64,000 nt of DNA from Escherichia phage NHEP10. The position numbers and the translations under genes are program-made. The notes beneath the pieces were generated by a model. It made no database searches. It worked only from the letters and a program-made list of their open reading frames with translations, and was not told the origin of the DNA. Shown one piece after another: positions 30,335 to 34,676 of this stretch. The stretch is taken from the sequence record PQ511148.1; one strand, 5' to 3'. Each line of letters opens with the position of its first letter. Positions within the stretch are counted from its first letter, which is position 1.

Positions 30335-30574
30335 TTATTTGAATTTCTTAGCGATGTTGATATAACGTAGAGCTTCGGCATCAATACTTCCAAGGACACT
30401 ATGAAGGAATGCGTCGGCATAGTATTCTAGTTGAACAGGTTCTTTAATCGCTTTAGCCGCTTTAGTTTCAAACAGGCCCATAAGGGCCTTTTTAAGAATT
30501 TGTTCGTTGCTGTTAATTTTAATAGTCAAAATCTCTTCATTAAGTTGGTGGTTAAAAGTTTTTCTAGAAATCAT
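30335..30574 (-). CDS. hypothetical protein (79 aa)
   Basis: ATG with SD GAGGT. Confidence 0.45.
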   Translation of the reverse strand: MISRKTFNHQLNEEILTIKINSNEQILKKALMGLFETKAAKAIKEPVQLEYYADAFLHSVLGSIDAEALRYINIAKKFK

Positions 30575-31740
30575 TCTGGGTACCTCAAAGCGTCGTCAGA
30601 GTTAGTTATATCAATAATAGATATAGAATTTTCTGATAACCCATTTTTAGATAACTGACGTTTATAATATCTTTCACAATATGTACACGTCGTCCCACAG
30701 ATTTCATTAGCACAATCGAAATCTGGATGTCTGAACCACCTTTTTTCTAAAAAGCCGTCTAACAAAGAGGTTTCAATATTTACCGTATGTGAAAACTCGG
30801 TCTCATTTTCAAGAGTGAAAATGGTCTCTAAAGGCTTCCACAATTCCAACAAATTACCTTCAAACTTTTCAGAAGCGTATGCTTCAAGAACTTTCAAAAT
30901 GTAGTCGGTGCTACCTGTACGTCCTGAAACTTTGAATTGAGTGATACCAATATCATTATAAAGTTTCAAATCTTGTGGACGAACAAAACGAGTTCTCAAC
31001 CAGTTAAATGGGTCTGTATCACGAGCTTTAATACAGTGCTGCATAGGATATCCATTTAATGATTTGGCATCATCTACTGTAACATCGGTGCTATGGAAAA
31101 TATAGCAAGAGTCACGATAGCTACAATGTGTTGTATACCCTTTACCAGCATTAGAACAGAACTCATTTACAAGAACTTCAAATATTATATTGTTCTTATT
31201 GCAAAACTCTGCTGCACGCTTCAGGAAAGAAACTGAACGGTTCTTATGAATTCCACAGCAGACCTTTTTGATATTATACTGGTCATGCAAGTATTTGATT
31301 TGAGTTACAGCATCGACATGTAGAATTGTTGAAACTTCAATCTCAATGTCTTTATTGACTTCACGAACAATTTCCATAACAACAGGGTTAGCGATAGTAA
31401 TACGCCATACGCCTATTGACCAAAGATACTGAACATAATCCTGAATAGCTTTCTTCTTCCACTCAACTAGTTCTCTTTTTGAACCGGGATTTATCGTGTT
31501 GAGTGTATAGTTAAAGCAAATACCTAATTCGTTACAACGTTTAACGTAATCTTCTAACATCTTTTTGTCAACGTCAGGAAGCCTAAAATCAGGTCTGGCT
31601 GCTACAAAAGCCATTTCTCTTGTAGAGCCATATACTTCGTTTATCAAGCTATTAGGATAGGTTTTATTGAGCTCTACGATTTTATCAAGAAGAGCTAAAT
31701 CAAAATTCGTTCCGATTTTAAAAGTATTCATTTTTTGCAT
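30571..31740 (-). CDS. hypothetical Cys-rich protein (389 aa), part of sugar cassette
   Basis: C-terminal half rich in Cys/His (HCSYRDSCYIFH, CANEICGTTCTYCERYY); no family recognised; no clear SD. Confidence 0.55.
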   Translation of the reverse strand: MQKMNTFKIGTNFDLALLDKIVELNKTYPNSLINEVYGSTREMAFVAARPDFRLPDVDKKMLEDYVKRCNELGICFNYTLNTINPGSKRELVEWKKKAIQDYVQYLWSIGVWRITIANPVVMEIVREVNKDIEIEVSTILHVDAVTQIKYLHDQYNIKKVCCGIHKNRSVSFLKRAAEFCNKNNIIFEVLVNEFCSNAGKGYTTHCSYRDSCYIFHSTDVTVDDAKSLNGYPMQHCIKARDTDPFNWLRTRFVRPQDLKLYNDIGITQFKVSGRTGSTDYILKVLEAYASEKFEGNLLELWKPLETIFTLENETEFSHTVNIETSLLDGFLEKRWFRHPDFDCANEICGTTCTYCERYYKRQLSKNGLSENSISIIDITNSDDALRYPE

Positions 31741-31787
31741 CTCGCGTTAATTGATGCGATGGTTTTTTGCAGGTCTTACTTAAATTA

Positions 31788-32174
31788 TTATAGATTCGGT
31801 TTATATGATTTAAATGTTTCGAATTCGCCTTTATTCATAAGAGCTTTGAATTCGTCAGGACGCATAGCTTTGTCGTCGATAATCCAATCATATACTGGTT
31901 TATGTGTTAGCAAATTATGGTACTTCAAGCCAATGTTTGCCAAGTTCTGAATAAGACTTGGGAGAATGTCAATTGCTATACGTCCAGGACCTACCGACTT
32001 CATACCGCGAGCAGTGTAAAGCGTTATGGTATGCCCTGCATCATACAGGGCATTAATGGCAGATACCATTTCGACGTCTGGTTTGAAGTTCACGTAATCA
32101 CGATTGTTATTCCACTCTGTTATACAATCATCGACATCAAAACAAAGATTAAGCATGTTTTCTACACGGTGCAT
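31788..32174 (-). CDS. HAD-superfamily phosphatase-like protein
   Basis: Start taken at ATG 32174 (TAATG overlap with upstream stop) giving N-terminal FDVDDCIT motif; alternative ATG at 32189. Confidence 0.55.
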   Translation of the reverse strand: MHRVENMLNLCFDVDDCITEWNNNRDYVNFKPDVEMVSAINALYDAGHTITLYTARGMKSVGPGRIAIDILPSLIQNLANIGLKYHNLLTHKPVYDWIIDDKAMRPDEFKALMNKGEFETFKSYKPNL

Positions 32175-33859: not shown

Positions 33860-33900
33860 GTTGTGGTCCTCATTGGTAAGTAGGAGTATTGTACACTATT

Positions 33901-34044
33901 CTAGTTAAAGCATTCATACTTTGCTTGTAGTCCAATCATAATCCATCCAATTACAAGTGTTGGAATCATTACCGGAGCCGTTAAGCTCCAGTAGATAGTC
34001 ATGACAAGCATCAATAGTAAAAGTCCTATTGTTATTGCTTTCAT
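33901..34044 (-). CDS. small membrane protein (47 aa)
   Basis: Not in ORF track. ATG 34044 overlaps isomerase stop (ATGA); SD GAGGCG; hydrophobic. Confidence 0.35.
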   Translation of the reverse strand: MKAITIGLLLLMLVMTIYWSLTAPVMIPTLVIGWIMIGLQAKYECFN

Positions 34045-34676
34045 TGTTCGCCTCGTAACATGGCACCTAGTGCACCACCAGGGTGGAACTTAAGGAAGTC
34101 ATTAGAGGTAAATCCACGTTCAGACGAAAGGTTGATAGCAAACGTATCGATAAGCGCTAACAACAATGTAGTGGACATGGTCGGAGCCAGAGAATTCTCA
34201 TCAACCTCTACTGCGATGCCTGTACAAAAAGAGTAATCAAAAAGGGCTTCATTTTCTTGTGGAATGTCTGGGTTACAATGCAACAGAATCTGTTTGACGT
34301 TCGGACGAATCATTTTAAGATGCTTAGCCACACCTATCATTTCTTCAGTTTTACCAGAACGACTAATATGAATCAACACATCATTAGGCGCAATAAATCC
34401 TGCATCACCGTGAGAATAATGCCCGGTGTTCAAGTACATACTCGGGATACCGAGTGAAGCAAATGTCTCAGAAGCTTTAGTTGCAATATTAGCATTCTTA
34501 CCAACACCTGTAATAATTACTCGGCTTTCATAATTACTAAGTCCTGGGCGTCGAAGAGTTTCTAGAATAGCATTATAACGAGCAGGGTTTTGACTAATTA
34601 CTTTGGCCATAGCGGCCAAAGAAGAAGCTTGTTTTATGATTGCGTCAATAGCGATAGTAATAGGAGTAGTTTTCAT
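34041..34676 (-). CDS. SIS-domain sugar-phosphate isomerase (arabinose-5-phosphate isomerase KdsD/GutQ-like)
   Basis: 211 aa; TGVGKNANIATKASETFASLG and HGDAGFIAPNDVLIHISRSGKTEE resemble KdsD SIS motifs; directly downstream of gene 43. Confidence 0.7.
   Translation of the reverse strand: MKTTPITIAIDAIIKQASSLAAMAKVISQNPARYNAILETLRRPGLSNYESRVIITGVGKNANIATKASETFASLGIPSMYLNTGHYSHGDAGFIAPNDVLIHISRSGKTEEMIGVAKHLKMIRPNVKQILLHCNPDIPQENEALFDYSFCTGIAVEVDENSLAPTMSTTLLLALIDTFAINLSSERGFTSNDFLKFHPGGALGAMLRGEQ

Follow-up and report, generated by a model that had tools for sequence, protein, structure and literature searches.

A proposed O2-independent C5-hydroxylase gene in the arabinosyl-5-hydroxycytosine cassette of an RB69-type phage

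Introduction

Between its DNA polymerase gene (34717-37428, the upstream flank) and a thymidylate-synthase-family gene, the 64,000-nucleotide stretch of Escherichia phage NHEP10 analyzed here (PQ511148.1; "the window") carries a compact gene block at positions 30335-34676. The questions raised by this locus are which sugar its genes would supply for DNA glycosylation, which base would receive it, and what the Cys-rich protein encoded among them contributes. In T4, hydroxymethylcytosine (hmC) is glucosylated by means of gp56 dCTPase, gp42 dCMP hydroxymethylase, the gp1 kinase, the alpha- and beta-glucosyltransferases, and host UDP-glucose. The original prediction was that the block provides an NDP-pentose donor, starting from a pentose-phosphate isomerase, for the glycosylation of hmC made via gp42. 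Thomas et al. 2018 (PMC6024577) put forward an arabinosylation module, which has been reconstituted in phage HY126 (PMC13326640).

Results

The cassette is that of RB69

ORF inspection resolved the span into six tightly spaced minus-strand genes. The five ORFs listed originally were all recovered at their coordinates and on the minus strand, and all are real; a sixth, of 79 aa (30335-30574), had been overlooked. Every cassette ORF matched a PHROG family (E 7e-27 to 1e-294), the 7-kb region was covered to at least 80% in 151 phage genomes, and intergenic spacing ranged from overlaps of up to 16 nt to gaps of no more than 47 nt, which together indicate genuine genes rather than chance ORFs. The predicted domains were borne out by profile matches for SIS, NTP_transferase, and HAD, the APH-like kinase half giving weak matches only (about 1e-3 to 1e-2). 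The placement between gene 43 and "gene 42" held as regards the polymerase upstream and a thymidylate-synthase-family gene downstream, but the latter is not a dCMP hydroxymethylase gene.

The window belongs to Mosigvirus, with 97.7% nucleotide identity to RB69. The link drawn originally to RB69 arabinosylation was correct: the cassette proteins are 96-100% identical to those of RB69, and gene set and order are the same as in the arabinosyl-5-hydroxycytosine system of RB69 and HY126, with no material difference. The 561-aa and 299-aa genes (see below), intact in the window, are split in the RB69 GenBank record through sequencing errors. The window is one more Mosigvirus isolate with an RB69-type arabinosylation system, and the donor-sugar pathway of its cassette is already known from near-identical phages. 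Doubt had been expressed as to whether these genes were biochemically characterized. The pathway genes are (HY126; PDB 9iqc and 9iqw); for the U32-family protein described below we found no published role, and He et al. 2026 or Mahler et al. 2025 may already assign one.

Donor-sugar synthesis

The gene at 34041..34676 (minus strand) encodes a 211-aa SIS-domain D-arabinose-5-phosphate isomerase, 100% identical to RB69 gp55. It matched Pfam SIS (1e-10) and phrog_5670 (4e-116) and, among PDB entries, 3etn (2.6e-25) and KdsD of E. coli (2xhz, 3.5e-19). NCBIfam gave KpsF/GutQ (2e-32) and KdsD (7e-31), neither of which reached its equivalog cut-off. The SIS catalytic domain is shared with the KdsD/GutQ arabinose-5-phosphate isomerases, but the phage protein consists of this domain alone, without CBS domains. 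Its role in converting ribulose-5-P (Ru5P) to arabinose-5-P (Ara5P) is as assigned in PMC13326640.

The 561-aa protein (32174..33859, minus strand; RB69 ORF53_52c/gp52:53; phrog_4098, 1e-294) is an AfhE-like fusion of nucleotidyltransferase and kinase, in which the motifs predicted for it were confirmed, ILGAGLATRL at residues 6-15 and HGDPNFSN at 377-384. The N-terminal half is a sugar-1-P nucleotidyltransferase (NTP_transferase, 8.5e-10, residues 3-99; archaeal GlmU/AglF-type NCBIfam matches down to 7e-14), while the C-terminal, APH/choline-kinase-like half gave weak matches to Fructosamin_kin, EcKL, and RIO1 over residues 308-409. For HY126 AfhE, the activities given in PMC13326640 are Ara5P 1-kinase and UDP-Araf pyrophosphorylase.

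The AfhF-like HAD-type phosphatase (31788..32174, minus strand; RB69 gp51) matched TIGR01689 capsule-biosynthesis phosphatase (4e-13) and PDB 1xpj (5e-10) and carries the predicted motif FDVDDCIT at residues 17-24. Its longest ORF (31788-32189, 133 aa) starts at 32189; the true start is probably Met6, whose ATG (32174-32172) overlaps the TAA that ends the preceding gene, and PDB 9iqw matches the protein at 128 of 129 aligned residues beginning at Met6. AfhF removes the 5-phosphate from Araf-1,5-bisphosphate, again according to PMC13326640.

The prediction of an NDP-pentose pathway was right in kind, except that it passed through free pentose. As He et al. 2026 is relayed in PMC13326640, the published route, without free pentose, runs from Ru5P to Ara5P, Araf-1,5-bisphosphate, Araf-1-P, and UDP-Araf; the kinase domain acts on Ara5P, the HAD protein then dephosphorylates, and the N-terminal domain forms UDP-Araf. 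The same source reports UDP-Araf to have been reconstituted from Ru5P with AfhE and AfhF alone. By extension from near-identical proteins on which these steps have been shown, the SIS isomerase of the window would turn host ribulose-5-P into D-arabinose-5-P, the kinase half of the 561-aa fusion would phosphorylate C1 to give Araf-1,5-bisphosphate, the HAD phosphatase would take off the 5-phosphate, and the N-terminal nucleotidyltransferase domain would yield UDP-arabinofuranose. Capsule and lipopolysaccharide (LPS) sugar activation, with MurU/GlmU-type nucleotidyltransferases and GmhB-type HAD bisphosphate phosphatases, is a near known system. The succession of kinase, bisphosphate phosphatase, and nucleotidyltransferase is akin to that of ADP-heptose synthesis (HldE/GmhB), but the phage kinase is APH/choline-kinase-like, whereas that of ADP-heptose-type systems is ribokinase-like. 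The product also differs, UDP-D-arabinofuranose not being known in Enterobacteriaceae according to the discussion of PMC13326640. Since UDP-Araf is not a host metabolite, the phage, unlike T4, encodes its own donor synthesis.

Base synthesis and sugar transfer

The adjacent gene at 29577..30293 (minus strand), taken originally for gene 42, encodes instead a thymidylate-synthase-family (ThyA-like) 5-hydroxy-dCMP synthase, 99.6% identical to RB69 gp48 and matching PDB 9iqc at all but 2 of 238 residues. Near-identical proteins have thus been crystallized for both the ThyA-like (9iqc) and the HAD (9iqw) enzymes. Residues E160, C163, N186, and D194 correspond to L143E, C146, D169N, and N177D, and include the 5hodCMP synthase signature E160/N186/D194. 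RB69 gp48 is an experimentally tested flavin/O2-dependent 5-hydroxy-dCMP synthase that, according to PMC13326640, suffices alone under aerobic conditions and incorporates 18O from O2. The proposed acceptor, hmC, is likewise refuted, RB69-type DNA carrying arabinose ether-linked to 5-hydroxycytosine (PMC13326640, PMC13390438).

Three further minus-strand genes outside the span belong here. At 28678..29577 lies putative DNA arabinosyltransferase 1 (299 aa; RB69 gp46:47; phrog_3891, 1.5e-155), for which Pfam, NCBIfam, and PDB sequence searches returned no match; its RB69 counterpart was called a glycosyltransferase (GT) from structure modeling (PMC13326640). A second putative arabinosyltransferase at 6998..8095, distant from the cassette, corresponds to RB69 ORF003c/gp3 (tblastn, 98.9% over 366 aa), whose role was proposed in PMC6024577 and PMC13326640. 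The third gene (28129..28677) encodes a 182-aa P-loop nucleotide kinase, thymidylate-kinase-like, that is 98.9% identical to RB69 gp45 (phrog_761, 6e-45; weak dTMP-kinase match). As shown on near-identical proteins, the ThyA-like enzyme would use flavin and O2 to hydroxylate dCMP to 5-hydroxy-dCMP, and after incorporation the two putative glycosyltransferases would decorate the 5-OH with one arabinose or two.

The window shares with T4 the gene 43 to uvsX neighborhood and a common scheme, in which a thymidylate-synthase homologue modifies dCMP, the polymerase incorporates the product, and the DNA is then glycosylated. The base differs (5-hydroxycytosine with ether-linked sugar instead of hydroxymethylcytosine), as does the cofactor of the ThyA homologue (flavin and O2 instead of methylene-tetrahydrofolate), and T4 lacks a U32 gene.

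The U32-family protein

The Cys-rich protein (30571..31740, minus strand; 389 aa, 13 Cys) is 99.5% identical to RB69 gp50 and belongs to the U32 family (Pfam Peptidase_U32, 6e-11). Its AF2 model has a pLDDT of 91.6, and the top PDB fold match is 5d88, which we take to be the only solved U32 structure. Nine cysteines (Cys161, 195, 206, 212, 236, 343, 348, 352, and 355) are invariant in 121 of 121 sequences, the last four forming a C-terminal CX4CX3CX2C motif. It would be an Fe-S-type protein, retaining the Fe-S cysteines of RlhA, TrhP, and UbiU, and a role as a sugar-pathway enzyme is unlikely. The only recurring NCBIfam matches were UbiU (34/46 members) and TrhP (17/46), and the best E. coli paralogue was the cytidine-C5 hydroxylase RlhA (hhalign E 1e-5, 203 columns).

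The U32 domain is shared with RlhA (23S rRNA ho5C2501), TrhP (tRNA ho5U34), and UbiU/UbiV (anaerobic ubiquinone); of these three known products, two, among them 5-hydroxycytidine, are 5-hydroxypyrimidines. The conserved U32-motif cysteines of the phage protein align with the essential C169/C176 of RlhA and with C176 of UbiU: in hhalign, C206/C212 of the window fall on RlhA C169/C176 (essentiality, PMC5727448), the register against RlhA/UbiU being ambiguous in that either C195 or C206 may pair with C169. Additional C-terminal cysteines are found in RlhA as well. The similarity is nevertheless remote, NCBIfam matches lying far below the cut-offs and a PDB phmmer search giving no match. Unlike RlhA, TrhP, and UbiU, the phage protein has an insertion with an extra invariant Cys in the U32 motif and a compact C-terminal motif.

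We propose that the U32 protein hydroxylates pyrimidines at C5 without O2 and in dependence on prephenate. The oxygen would come from prephenate, which has been reported or proposed to serve RlhA, TrhP, and UbiU/V in this way; the presumed substrate, a deoxynucleotide or DNA, would be new to the family. Prephenate is the oxygen donor for UbiU/V, and U32 proteins have been proposed to be prephenate-dependent hydroxylases; for RlhA and TrhP, direct in vitro hydroxylase activity was undemonstrated as of 2024 (PMC10990095). Pairs of O2-dependent and O2-independent enzymes exist in TrhO/TrhP, two routes to tRNA ho5U of which TrhP uses prephenate (PMC6599085), and in UbiI,H,F/UbiU,V, and the same is proposed for the phage. 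Because gp48 alone suffices aerobically, a second hydroxylase would make sense only under other conditions. The window also encodes the anaerobic pair NrdD and NrdG. T4-type phages are known to have an aerobic and an anaerobic ribonucleotide reductase, a parallel to the proposed hydroxylase pair. If the proposal is true, the phage could form 5-hydroxycytosine nucleotides inside an anoxic host; this role for the cassette's U32 gene is the new part relative to the published system.

Gene neighborhoods and distribution

In support of the proposed hydroxylase, genes for prephenate supply accompany U32, and they do so in three arrangements of independent origin. This linkage is shared with the RlhA/TrhP/UbiU group. 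A CM_2 chorismate mutase (CM) gene adjoins U32 in 54 Straboviridae records, and in Thanatos, despite a rearranged cluster, the two are still adjacent and overlapping. DAHP synthase directly follows U32 in loci L005 and L032. In L048, a distance of about 0.6 kb, occupied by a HAD gene, separates U32 from a DAHP-synthase/CM fusion upstream of it, and similar matches occur in L043, L044, and L046. Counting against the proposal, chorismate mutase is missing in Mosigvirus, the lineage of the window, and in Klebsiella phage Marfa.

U32 was present in 221 phage records, with hosts that are all Enterobacterales or Shewanella. No Acinetobacter was among the listed hosts, while an AfhE-like gene occurs in 57 Acinetobacter phage records. 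Acinetobacter is a strict aerobe. At the syntenic site of Lazarus, HAD is followed directly by the ThyA-like gene. The ThyA-like, AfhE-like, HAD, and GT genes all occur in Dhakaviruses of E. coli (e.g., JS10), but U32 does not, and it is therefore not obligatory in a phage of a facultative anaerobe. No other protein of the cluster is as conserved as U32 (82-89% identity where the AfhE-like enzyme has 41-72%). Among about 28 non-Straboviridae phage loci with U32, GT1-like genes were found in about 18, API plus AfhE-like genes in about 11, and a ThyA-profile match within +/-10 kb of U32 in L034 only. In uncultured phages, homologues of the 299-aa GT1 lie immediately upstream of U32; the gene order in L045 is NTP-pyrophosphatase-like, nucleotide kinase, GT1-like, and U32.

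Alternative functions for the U32 protein

Located inside the sugar block, between the HAD phosphatase and ThyA-like genes, U32 could instead encode an enzyme of the sugar branch, such as a reductase or an epimerase, with arabinose phosphate or UDP-arabinose as its substrate, e.g., to set ring form or configuration. Several uncultured phages, where U32 often comes after API, AfhE-like, and HAD genes, would fit a sugar-related role too, as would a modeled TIM-barrel-like fold with sugar isomerases/epimerases and aldolases among its lower-ranked matches. The labels of Bas46 in GenBank ("putative enzyme involved in UDP-arabinose biosynthesis") and of gp50 in Table 1 of PMC13326640 ("sugar or heterocycle reductase") point the same way. 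We nonetheless regard this function as unlikely. The conversion of Ru5P to UDP-Araf as given in PMC13326640 needs no redox or extra step, and Acinetobacter phage DLP3 has arabinosylated DNA with no U32-type protein in its Table 1 gene set. Arabinosylation genes without U32 in Acinetobacter phages and Dhakaviruses argue likewise, as does the converse situation in L045 and L017, with U32, GT1-like, and nucleotide-metabolism genes but neither API nor AfhE-like. We know of no characterized U32 protein that acts on a sugar, and the chorismate mutase/DAHP synthase linkage would be left unexplained.

That linkage would be equally useful to an RNA hydroxylase that tunes translation in infected cells through host or phage tRNA (ho5U34) or 23S rRNA (ho5C2501), its position in the cluster being incidental. 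T4-type phages encode tRNAs, and the closest E. coli paralogue is RlhA, which, like TrhP, works on RNA. Such a target (cf. PMC5727448 and PMC6599085) seems to us decidedly improbable here: across unrelated phage groups U32 is linked to dCMP deaminase, dUTPase-like, thymidylate-kinase-like, GT1-like, and replicative polymerase genes, and the phage protein, 389 aa in length, is without the long C-terminal extension found in RlhA (653 aa). Phage-encoded DAHP synthase and CM would imply bulk use of prephenate, fitting one hydroxyl per DNA cytosine and not a few RNA sites. Least credible of all is a collagenase-like peptidase or another function apart from DNA modification, to which database labels ("peptidase," "putative protease," "collagenase-like protease") and the Pfam name would point. 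E. coli RlhA, TrhP, UbiU, and UbiV serve hydroxylation and not proteolysis (PMC10990095, PMC5727448), the nine invariant cysteines suggest metal or Fe-S binding, and the U32 neighborhood is invariably related to nucleotides or DNA modification. On balance, we favor, with some reserve, a block that forms the donor half of an arabinosyl-5-hydroxycytosine system and in which U32 is a second, O2-independent, prephenate-using C5-hydroxylase.

Small ORFs in the cassette

The strongly hydrophobic 47-aa (membrane) ORF (33901..34044, minus strand; Kyte-Doolittle peak 2.17 over 19 residues) corresponds to RB69 ORF054c, annotated shorter there. At its start it shares 4 nt with the end of the SIS gene, stop codon included; it matched phrog_3610 (7e-27), and a syntenic Winklervirus ORF is 60% identical. 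The 79-aa ORF (minus strand; RB69 ORF049c; phrog_8601, 5e-50) likewise shares the first 4 nt with the end of the U32 gene, stop codon included. A search of it for a CM_2 signal found none. Its slot adjoins the chorismate mutase position of other lineages, and in Serratia phage 92A1 a homologous ORF of 74 aa (blastp 2e-13) separates U32 from CM.

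Organization and identity of the cassette

Six consecutive ORFs lie on the minus strand between the DNA polymerase gene (upstream flank, 34717-37428, minus strand) and a thymidylate synthase family (ThyA-like) gene (downstream flank, 29577-30293). They encode an SIS protein of 211 aa (34041-34676), a hydrophobic, presumptive membrane product of 47 aa (33901-34044), a two-domain protein of 561 aa (32174-33859), a HAD-like protein of 133 aa (31788-32189), a protein of 389 aa with 13 cysteines (30571-31740), and a 79-aa product (30335-30574). The original prediction described five consecutive minus-strand genes between polymerase gene 43 and a gene that it named gene 42. 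That placement was confirmed and all five were recovered where expected, with every quoted motif present in the ORFs, but the span holds six, the 79-aa ORF having been left off the list. Neighboring genes overlap by up to 16 nt or are separated by no more than 47 nt, start and stop codons overlapping by 4 nt at the SIS/47-aa and 389-aa/79-aa boundaries. Downstream, the array continues with the ThyA-like gene, a 299-aa gene (28678-29577), and a 182-aa P-loop kinase gene, and stops before uvsX; all its ORFs matched PHROG families (E values of 7e-27 to 1e-294). Across positions 27900 to 34900, a promoter scan gave 20 hits versus 25.7 in the shuffled expectation, i.e., at or below chance, and a terminator scan gave an unremarkable 6 versus 3.9, with no operon boundaries callable.

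In 151 phage genomes, coverage of the 7-kb region reaches 80% or more. The region shares 98.4% identity with Escherichia phage vB_EcoM_TU01 and 97.7% nucleotide identity with RB69. Protein by protein, the cassette is 96 to 100% identical to RB69 ORF045c-055c. Orthologues of the arabinose-5-phosphate isomerase (API), kinase/nucleotidyltransferase, HAD protein, ThyA-like enzyme, putative arabinosyltransferase 1 (GT1, the 299-aa protein), and nucleotide kinase are present in conserved order from gene 43 to uvsX. The 561-aa and 299-aa genes, whole in the window, are split in the RB69 GenBank record because of sequencing errors (PMC6024577; PMC13326640).

The cassette belongs to the arabinosyl-5-hydroxycytosine system

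The cassette is real and was read correctly in outline, and it is already known: it is the UDP-D-arabinofuranose pathway of the arabinosyl-5-hydroxycytosine system. Arabinose was found in RB69 DNA by Thomas et al. in 2018 (PMC6024577), and the revision by Lee et al. in 2026 has it ether linked directly to C5 via the oxygen of 5-hydroxycytosine (5hoC) (PMC13326640). Mono- or di-arabinosyl-5-hydroxy-dC in virion DNA is documented in both RB69 (PMC13326640) and Mosigvirus NP (PMC13390438). The maker of 5-hydroxy-dCMP is RB69 gp48, a ThyA homologue that produces 5hodC in vivo, incorporates 18O from 18O2, and copurifies with flavin (PMC13326640). The sugar branch was reconstituted in phage HY126 by He et al. 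in 2026, whose results, as relayed in PMC13326640, identify AfhE as an Ara-5-P kinase plus UDP-arabinose pyrophosphorylase and AfhF as a Mg-dependent phosphatase converting Araf-1,5-bisphosphate to Araf-1-P. Since the kinase acts ahead of the phosphatase, the published route contains no free pentose, through which the original prediction had run the pathway; the biochemical characterization of which it was unsure does exist, for near-identical genes. Two PDB entries, 9iqc and 9ir2, are a 238-aa "thymidylate synthase" differing by 2 residues from the window's ThyA-like protein, and a third, 9iqw, is a 134-aa protein in which 128 of 129 aligned residues are the same as in the window's HAD protein. 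By our own reckoning, all three are very probably HY126 structures.

The neighboring gene had been taken for dCMP hydroxymethylase gene 42, and the acceptor base accordingly for hydroxymethylcytosine (hmC). Its product instead carries residues E160, C163, N186, and D194, equivalent to L143E, C146, D169N, and N177D of E. coli ThyA when aligned without gaps after "DGKL"; L143E/D169N/N177D (E. coli numbering) is the published diagnostic of 5hodCMP synthases (PMC13326640). The MAFFT register of this active-site stretch (D169A/N177Y) was discarded as one residue off, the ungapped register reproducing the published D169N/N177D. The protein is also 99.6% identical to the experimentally tested RB69 gp48. 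Because of this 5hodCMP-synthase signature, the modified base is predicted to be 5hoC and not hmC.

The domain assignments made for the sugar branch held up in profile searches, with SIS, NTP_transferase, and HAD-type matches obtained and only weak ones for the C-terminal kinase half of the 561-aa protein. The SIS protein matched TIGR00393 (KpsF/GutQ; 2e-32), KdsD (7e-31), and GutQ (9e-23), as well as PDB entries 3etn (2.6e-25) and 2xhz (E. coli KdsD; 3.5e-19), at scores short of the KpsF/GutQ/KdsD equivalog cutoffs (108 to 113 bits versus 204 to 505). The match spans profile positions 47 to 202 of 328, and tandem CBS domains are not present in the 211 residues; by sequence, the isomerase is an SIS-only relative. 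The N-terminal part of the 561-aa protein (the AfhE-like enzyme) matched NTP_transferase (8.5e-10) and archaeal GlmU/AglF types (down to 7e-14), the weak kinase family matches of its C-terminal half centering on the HGDPNFSN loop. The HAD-like protein matched the capsule biosynthesis phosphatase family TIGR01689 (4e-13). As the crystallized construct (9iqw) starts at Met6 of the window's HAD ORF, and the ATG of Met6 (32174-32172) overlaps the TAA terminating the preceding gene, position 32174 is likely the true HAD start. A homologue of the second proposed arabinosyltransferase, RB69 ORF003c/gp3 (98.9% identical), lies some 20 kb away from the cassette, at 6998-8095 on the minus strand, adjoining the topoisomerase gene.

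gp50 is a distinct member of the U32 family

In itself, the cassette thus adds one more Mosigvirus isolate to an already published system and otherwise nothing new. Its value rests on the 389-aa Cys-rich protein, the counterpart of RB69 gp50, for which a testable hypothesis not found in the accessible literature can be framed. This protein matched Peptidase_U32 (6e-11; 42.4 bits versus a gathering threshold of 22.4). Profile alignment put it closest, among the E. coli paralogues, to RlhA (E value of 1e-5 over 203 columns), followed by TrhP (2e-3), UbiU (8e-3), and UbiV (0.13). RlhA is the 23S rRNA cytidine-C5 hydroxylase (PMC5727448). The only NCBIfam matches recurring across the phage family were UbiU (34 of 46) and TrhP (17 of 46). 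The window protein scored 19 bits with UbiU versus a cutoff of 440, and the best TrhP E value, 4e-4, came from other family members. All these matches being far below cutoff, the phage U32 proteins form a separate subfamily.

Nine cysteines (Cys161, 195, 206, 212, 236, 343, 348, 352, and 355) are invariant in 121 family members. The reference sites were C169/C176 of RlhA and the 4Fe-4S ligands C169/C176/C193/C232 of UbiU. Cys212 pairs with RlhA/UbiU Cys176 in both the MAFFT and the hhalign alignments; the counterpart of Cys169 is ambiguous, C195 by MAFFT and C206 by hhalign. Cys169 and Cys176 of RlhA are both essential (PMC5727448), and the 4Fe-4S cluster of UbiU requires C176 (PMC10990095). 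The best PDB fold for the confident AF2 model (pLDDT, 91.6; pTM, 0.90) was 5d88, the one U32 protein with a solved structure, with generic TIM barrels ranking next; the sequence itself had zero PDB matches even at E values of ≤1.

In GenBank, the protein is annotated as a peptidase in some records and elsewhere as a "putative enzyme involved in UDP-arabinose biosynthesis." Lee et al. name gp50 once, in their Table 1, as a "sugar or heterocycle reductase," and the family it shares with the U32 hydroxylases goes unremarked there (PMC13326640). No published role for RB69 gp50 was found in the accessible literature, nor anything relevant tying U32 proteins, chorismate mutase, or prephenate to phage DNA modification; the Thanatos and Durham phage papers mention neither a U32 nor a chorismate mutase gene.

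Distribution of U32 in phages

By tblastn, U32 was present in 221 phage records, each at least 82% identical, and the AfhE-like enzyme in 376, at 41 to 72% identity in the non-Mosigvirus lineages that carry U32. U32 is on these figures the most conserved protein of the cluster. The hosts of the U32 phages are Escherichia, Klebsiella, Shigella, Serratia, Proteus, Yersinia, Enterobacter, Providencia, Edwardsiella, Erwinia, Pectobacterium, and Shewanella, all facultative anaerobes. Acinetobacter is not among the hosts listed for the 221 records, yet the AfhE-like gene occurs in 57 records of Acinetobacter phages; in one phage, Lazarus, the ThyA-like gene comes directly after the HAD gene. The correlation with host is imperfect, as the E. 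coli Dhakavirus JS10 has the ThyA-like, AfhE-like, HAD, and glycosyltransferase genes without U32. The JS10 cluster (locus L002, 6440-11175) also has no recognizable SIS isomerase, an unrelated 166-aa ORF occupying its position. Presumably, host KdsD/GutQ provide JS10 with arabinose-5-P, and the O2-dependent hydroxylase is the only one it uses.

Prephenate supply genes accompany U32

In Erwinia phage Virsaitis27, a type II chorismate mutase (CM) gene overlaps the end of U32 (CM_2, 44.6 bits versus a cutoff of 27). CM homologues were found in 54 phage records, adjoining U32 and the ThyA-like gene wherever the annotation shows the neighbors. They occur in Winklervirus, Marfavirus F48, Bragavirus, and Serratia phage 92A1, and in phages of Yersinia, Edwardsiella, Enterobacter, Pectobacterium, Morganella, and Providencia. 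Even in Shewanella phage Thanatos, where the cluster is rearranged, U32 and CM are still adjacent and overlapping. Among the Straboviridae loci from IMG/VR, 13 of 15 have CM, the exceptions being the Mosigvirus locus and phage Marfa.

Uncultured phages whose U32 is 45 to 56% identical to that of the window have a DAHP synthase (DAHPS) gene directly after U32 in two loci, L005 and L032. Assignment of the L005 DAHP_synth_1 protein as a KDO8P synthase, which would favor a sugar role, was rejected on score (237 bits for DAHPS versus 63 for KDO8P synthase). In a further locus, L048, a fused DAHPS/CM lies about 0.6 kb upstream of U32 with the HAD gene between, and similar matches were obtained in L043, L044, and L046. 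CM_2 or DAHPS genes are thus found near U32 in three separate gene arrangements. Prephenate, the chorismate mutase product, is required for RlhA-dependent ho5C formation (PMC5727448) and reportedly for TrhP as well (PMC6599085); it is the oxygen donor of UbiU/V (PMC10990095).

U32 loci without a nearby ThyA-like gene

Among about 28 non-Straboviridae U32 loci, only L034 gave a ThyA profile match within ±10 kb of U32. About 18 of the 28 have a homologue of the 299-aa arabinosyltransferase 1, in many cases as the gene immediately before U32, and API and AfhE-like genes are present in about 11. L048 reads GT1-like, thymidylate kinase-like, SIS, AfhE-like, DAHPS/CM fusion, HAD, and U32, which is the window's whole system with U32 and prephenate supply replacing the ThyA-like hydroxylase. 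L045 (primase, dUTPase_2/MazG-like, thymidylate kinase-like, GT1-like, U32) is shaped like the T4 scheme of dCTPase, base-modifying enzyme, kinase, and glucosyltransferase; by this analogy, the layout hints that the substrate may be a mononucleotide.

Elsewhere, U32 comes right after dCMP deaminase and beside the replicative polymerase. In uncultured large phages (L004, a 466-kb contig, 7447-9086; L015/L016, 7504-9083), U32 directly follows dCMP deaminase and adjoins a UDG-fused PolIII-alpha polymerase, a 248- to 254-aa gene always comes next, and no glycosyltransferase or sugar pathway homologues were detected near U32. In these phages, the hydroxylation substrate might be dUMP instead of dCMP. 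A radical SAM/SPASM gene lies some 8 kb upstream of U32 in L004, and on the 199-kb L048 contig, two weak radical SAM-like ORFs (2644-4366) lie immediately upstream of the GT1-like-to-U32 cluster.

A proposed role for gp50

Sequence, gene neighborhood, and distribution together lead us to propose, with about equal chances of being right or wrong, that gp50 is an O2-independent, prephenate-dependent pyrimidine C5-hydroxylase supplying 5-hydroxycytosine nucleotides without O2. The joint reading, to which we give an even chance, is that gp50 would be the first such hydroxylase acting on DNA precursors or DNA, providing an anaerobic route parallel to the O2/flavin ThyA-like enzyme. gp48 is sufficient aerobically, drawing its oxygen from O2 (PMC13326640); it would cover aerobic growth, and gp50 would take over in the absence of O2. 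In the uncultured phages apparently without a ThyA-like enzyme, U32 would be the sole base hydroxylase. Phage CM or DAHPS would boost the host shikimate pathway, at a price of one prephenate per modified base. Cells keep similar pairs of O2-dependent and prephenate-dependent enzymes, namely, TrhO/TrhP for tRNA ho5U and UbiI,H,F/UbiU,V for ubiquinone.

The window also encodes an anaerobic ribonucleotide reductase, NrdD (605 aa; NRDD, 1.3e-171), and its radical SAM activase NrdG (156 aa) (49782-52066, minus strand), with endonuclease VII (gene 49; 52063-52536) just upstream. With NrdD/NrdG, the phage is evidently built for replication without O2.

Against the proposal stand the lack of chorismate mutase in the window's own lineage and the lack of U32 in the Dhakaviruses. 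Its weak points are the ambiguous cysteine register and the ±10-kb range to which the absence of ThyA applies.

If correct, the proposal would explain how a gut coliphage with all its cytosine replaced via an O2-requiring enzyme replicates in an anoxic host; full replacement of cytosine by the phage, along with a phage-encoded dCTPase, has been reported (PMC13326640). It would also account for the chorismate mutase and DAHPS genes in phages, single out a set of uncultured phages whose DNA is likely hydroxylated and glycosylated, and extend the poorly understood U32/prephenate hydroxylation chemistry beyond RNA and quinones to DNA. The direct hydroxylase activity of RlhA and TrhP had not been reconstituted as of 2024 (PMC10990095), and the phage enzyme would offer a high-flux, easily assayed system for U32 chemistry.

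Small ORFs and mobile genes of the cluster

The 47-aa and 79-aa ORFs matched only PHROG families without assigned function. The 79-aa ORF was considered as a degenerate AroQ (CM_2) chorismate mutase; it had no Pfam match at E values of ≤1, and a phage CM HMM gave an E value of 0.31. It is homologous (2e-13) to a 74-aa ORF that separates U32 from CM in Serratia phage 92A1. Because it has no CM_2 signal and its homologue coexists with a real CM, the ORF is not a degenerate CM. An accessory role is possible, since the ORF is translationally coupled to U32.

The start of the Winklervirus CM (114 aa; Virsaitis27, L001:7158-7502), MRRINHTMNELVIK..., resembles that of the gp49-like 74-aa ORF of 92A1, MNRINHNLNERLVK... 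(L014:4771-4995), with 8 of the first 15 residues identical and a weaker likeness to the window's 79-aa ORF. The sequences suggest that the Winklervirus CM is a fusion remnant, left by a deletion that joined the beginning of a gp49-like gene to the gene for CM. In Winklervirus, the 47-aa membrane ORF (60% identical) is again found between the SIS and AfhE-like genes. Several lineages have Seg-like or GIY-YIG homing endonuclease genes within or beside the modification cluster (L001:5352-5990; L013:3932-4615; L011:8239-8892), one occupying the HAD/U32 gap in Winklervirus and another the U32/CM gap in Proteus phage PM2.
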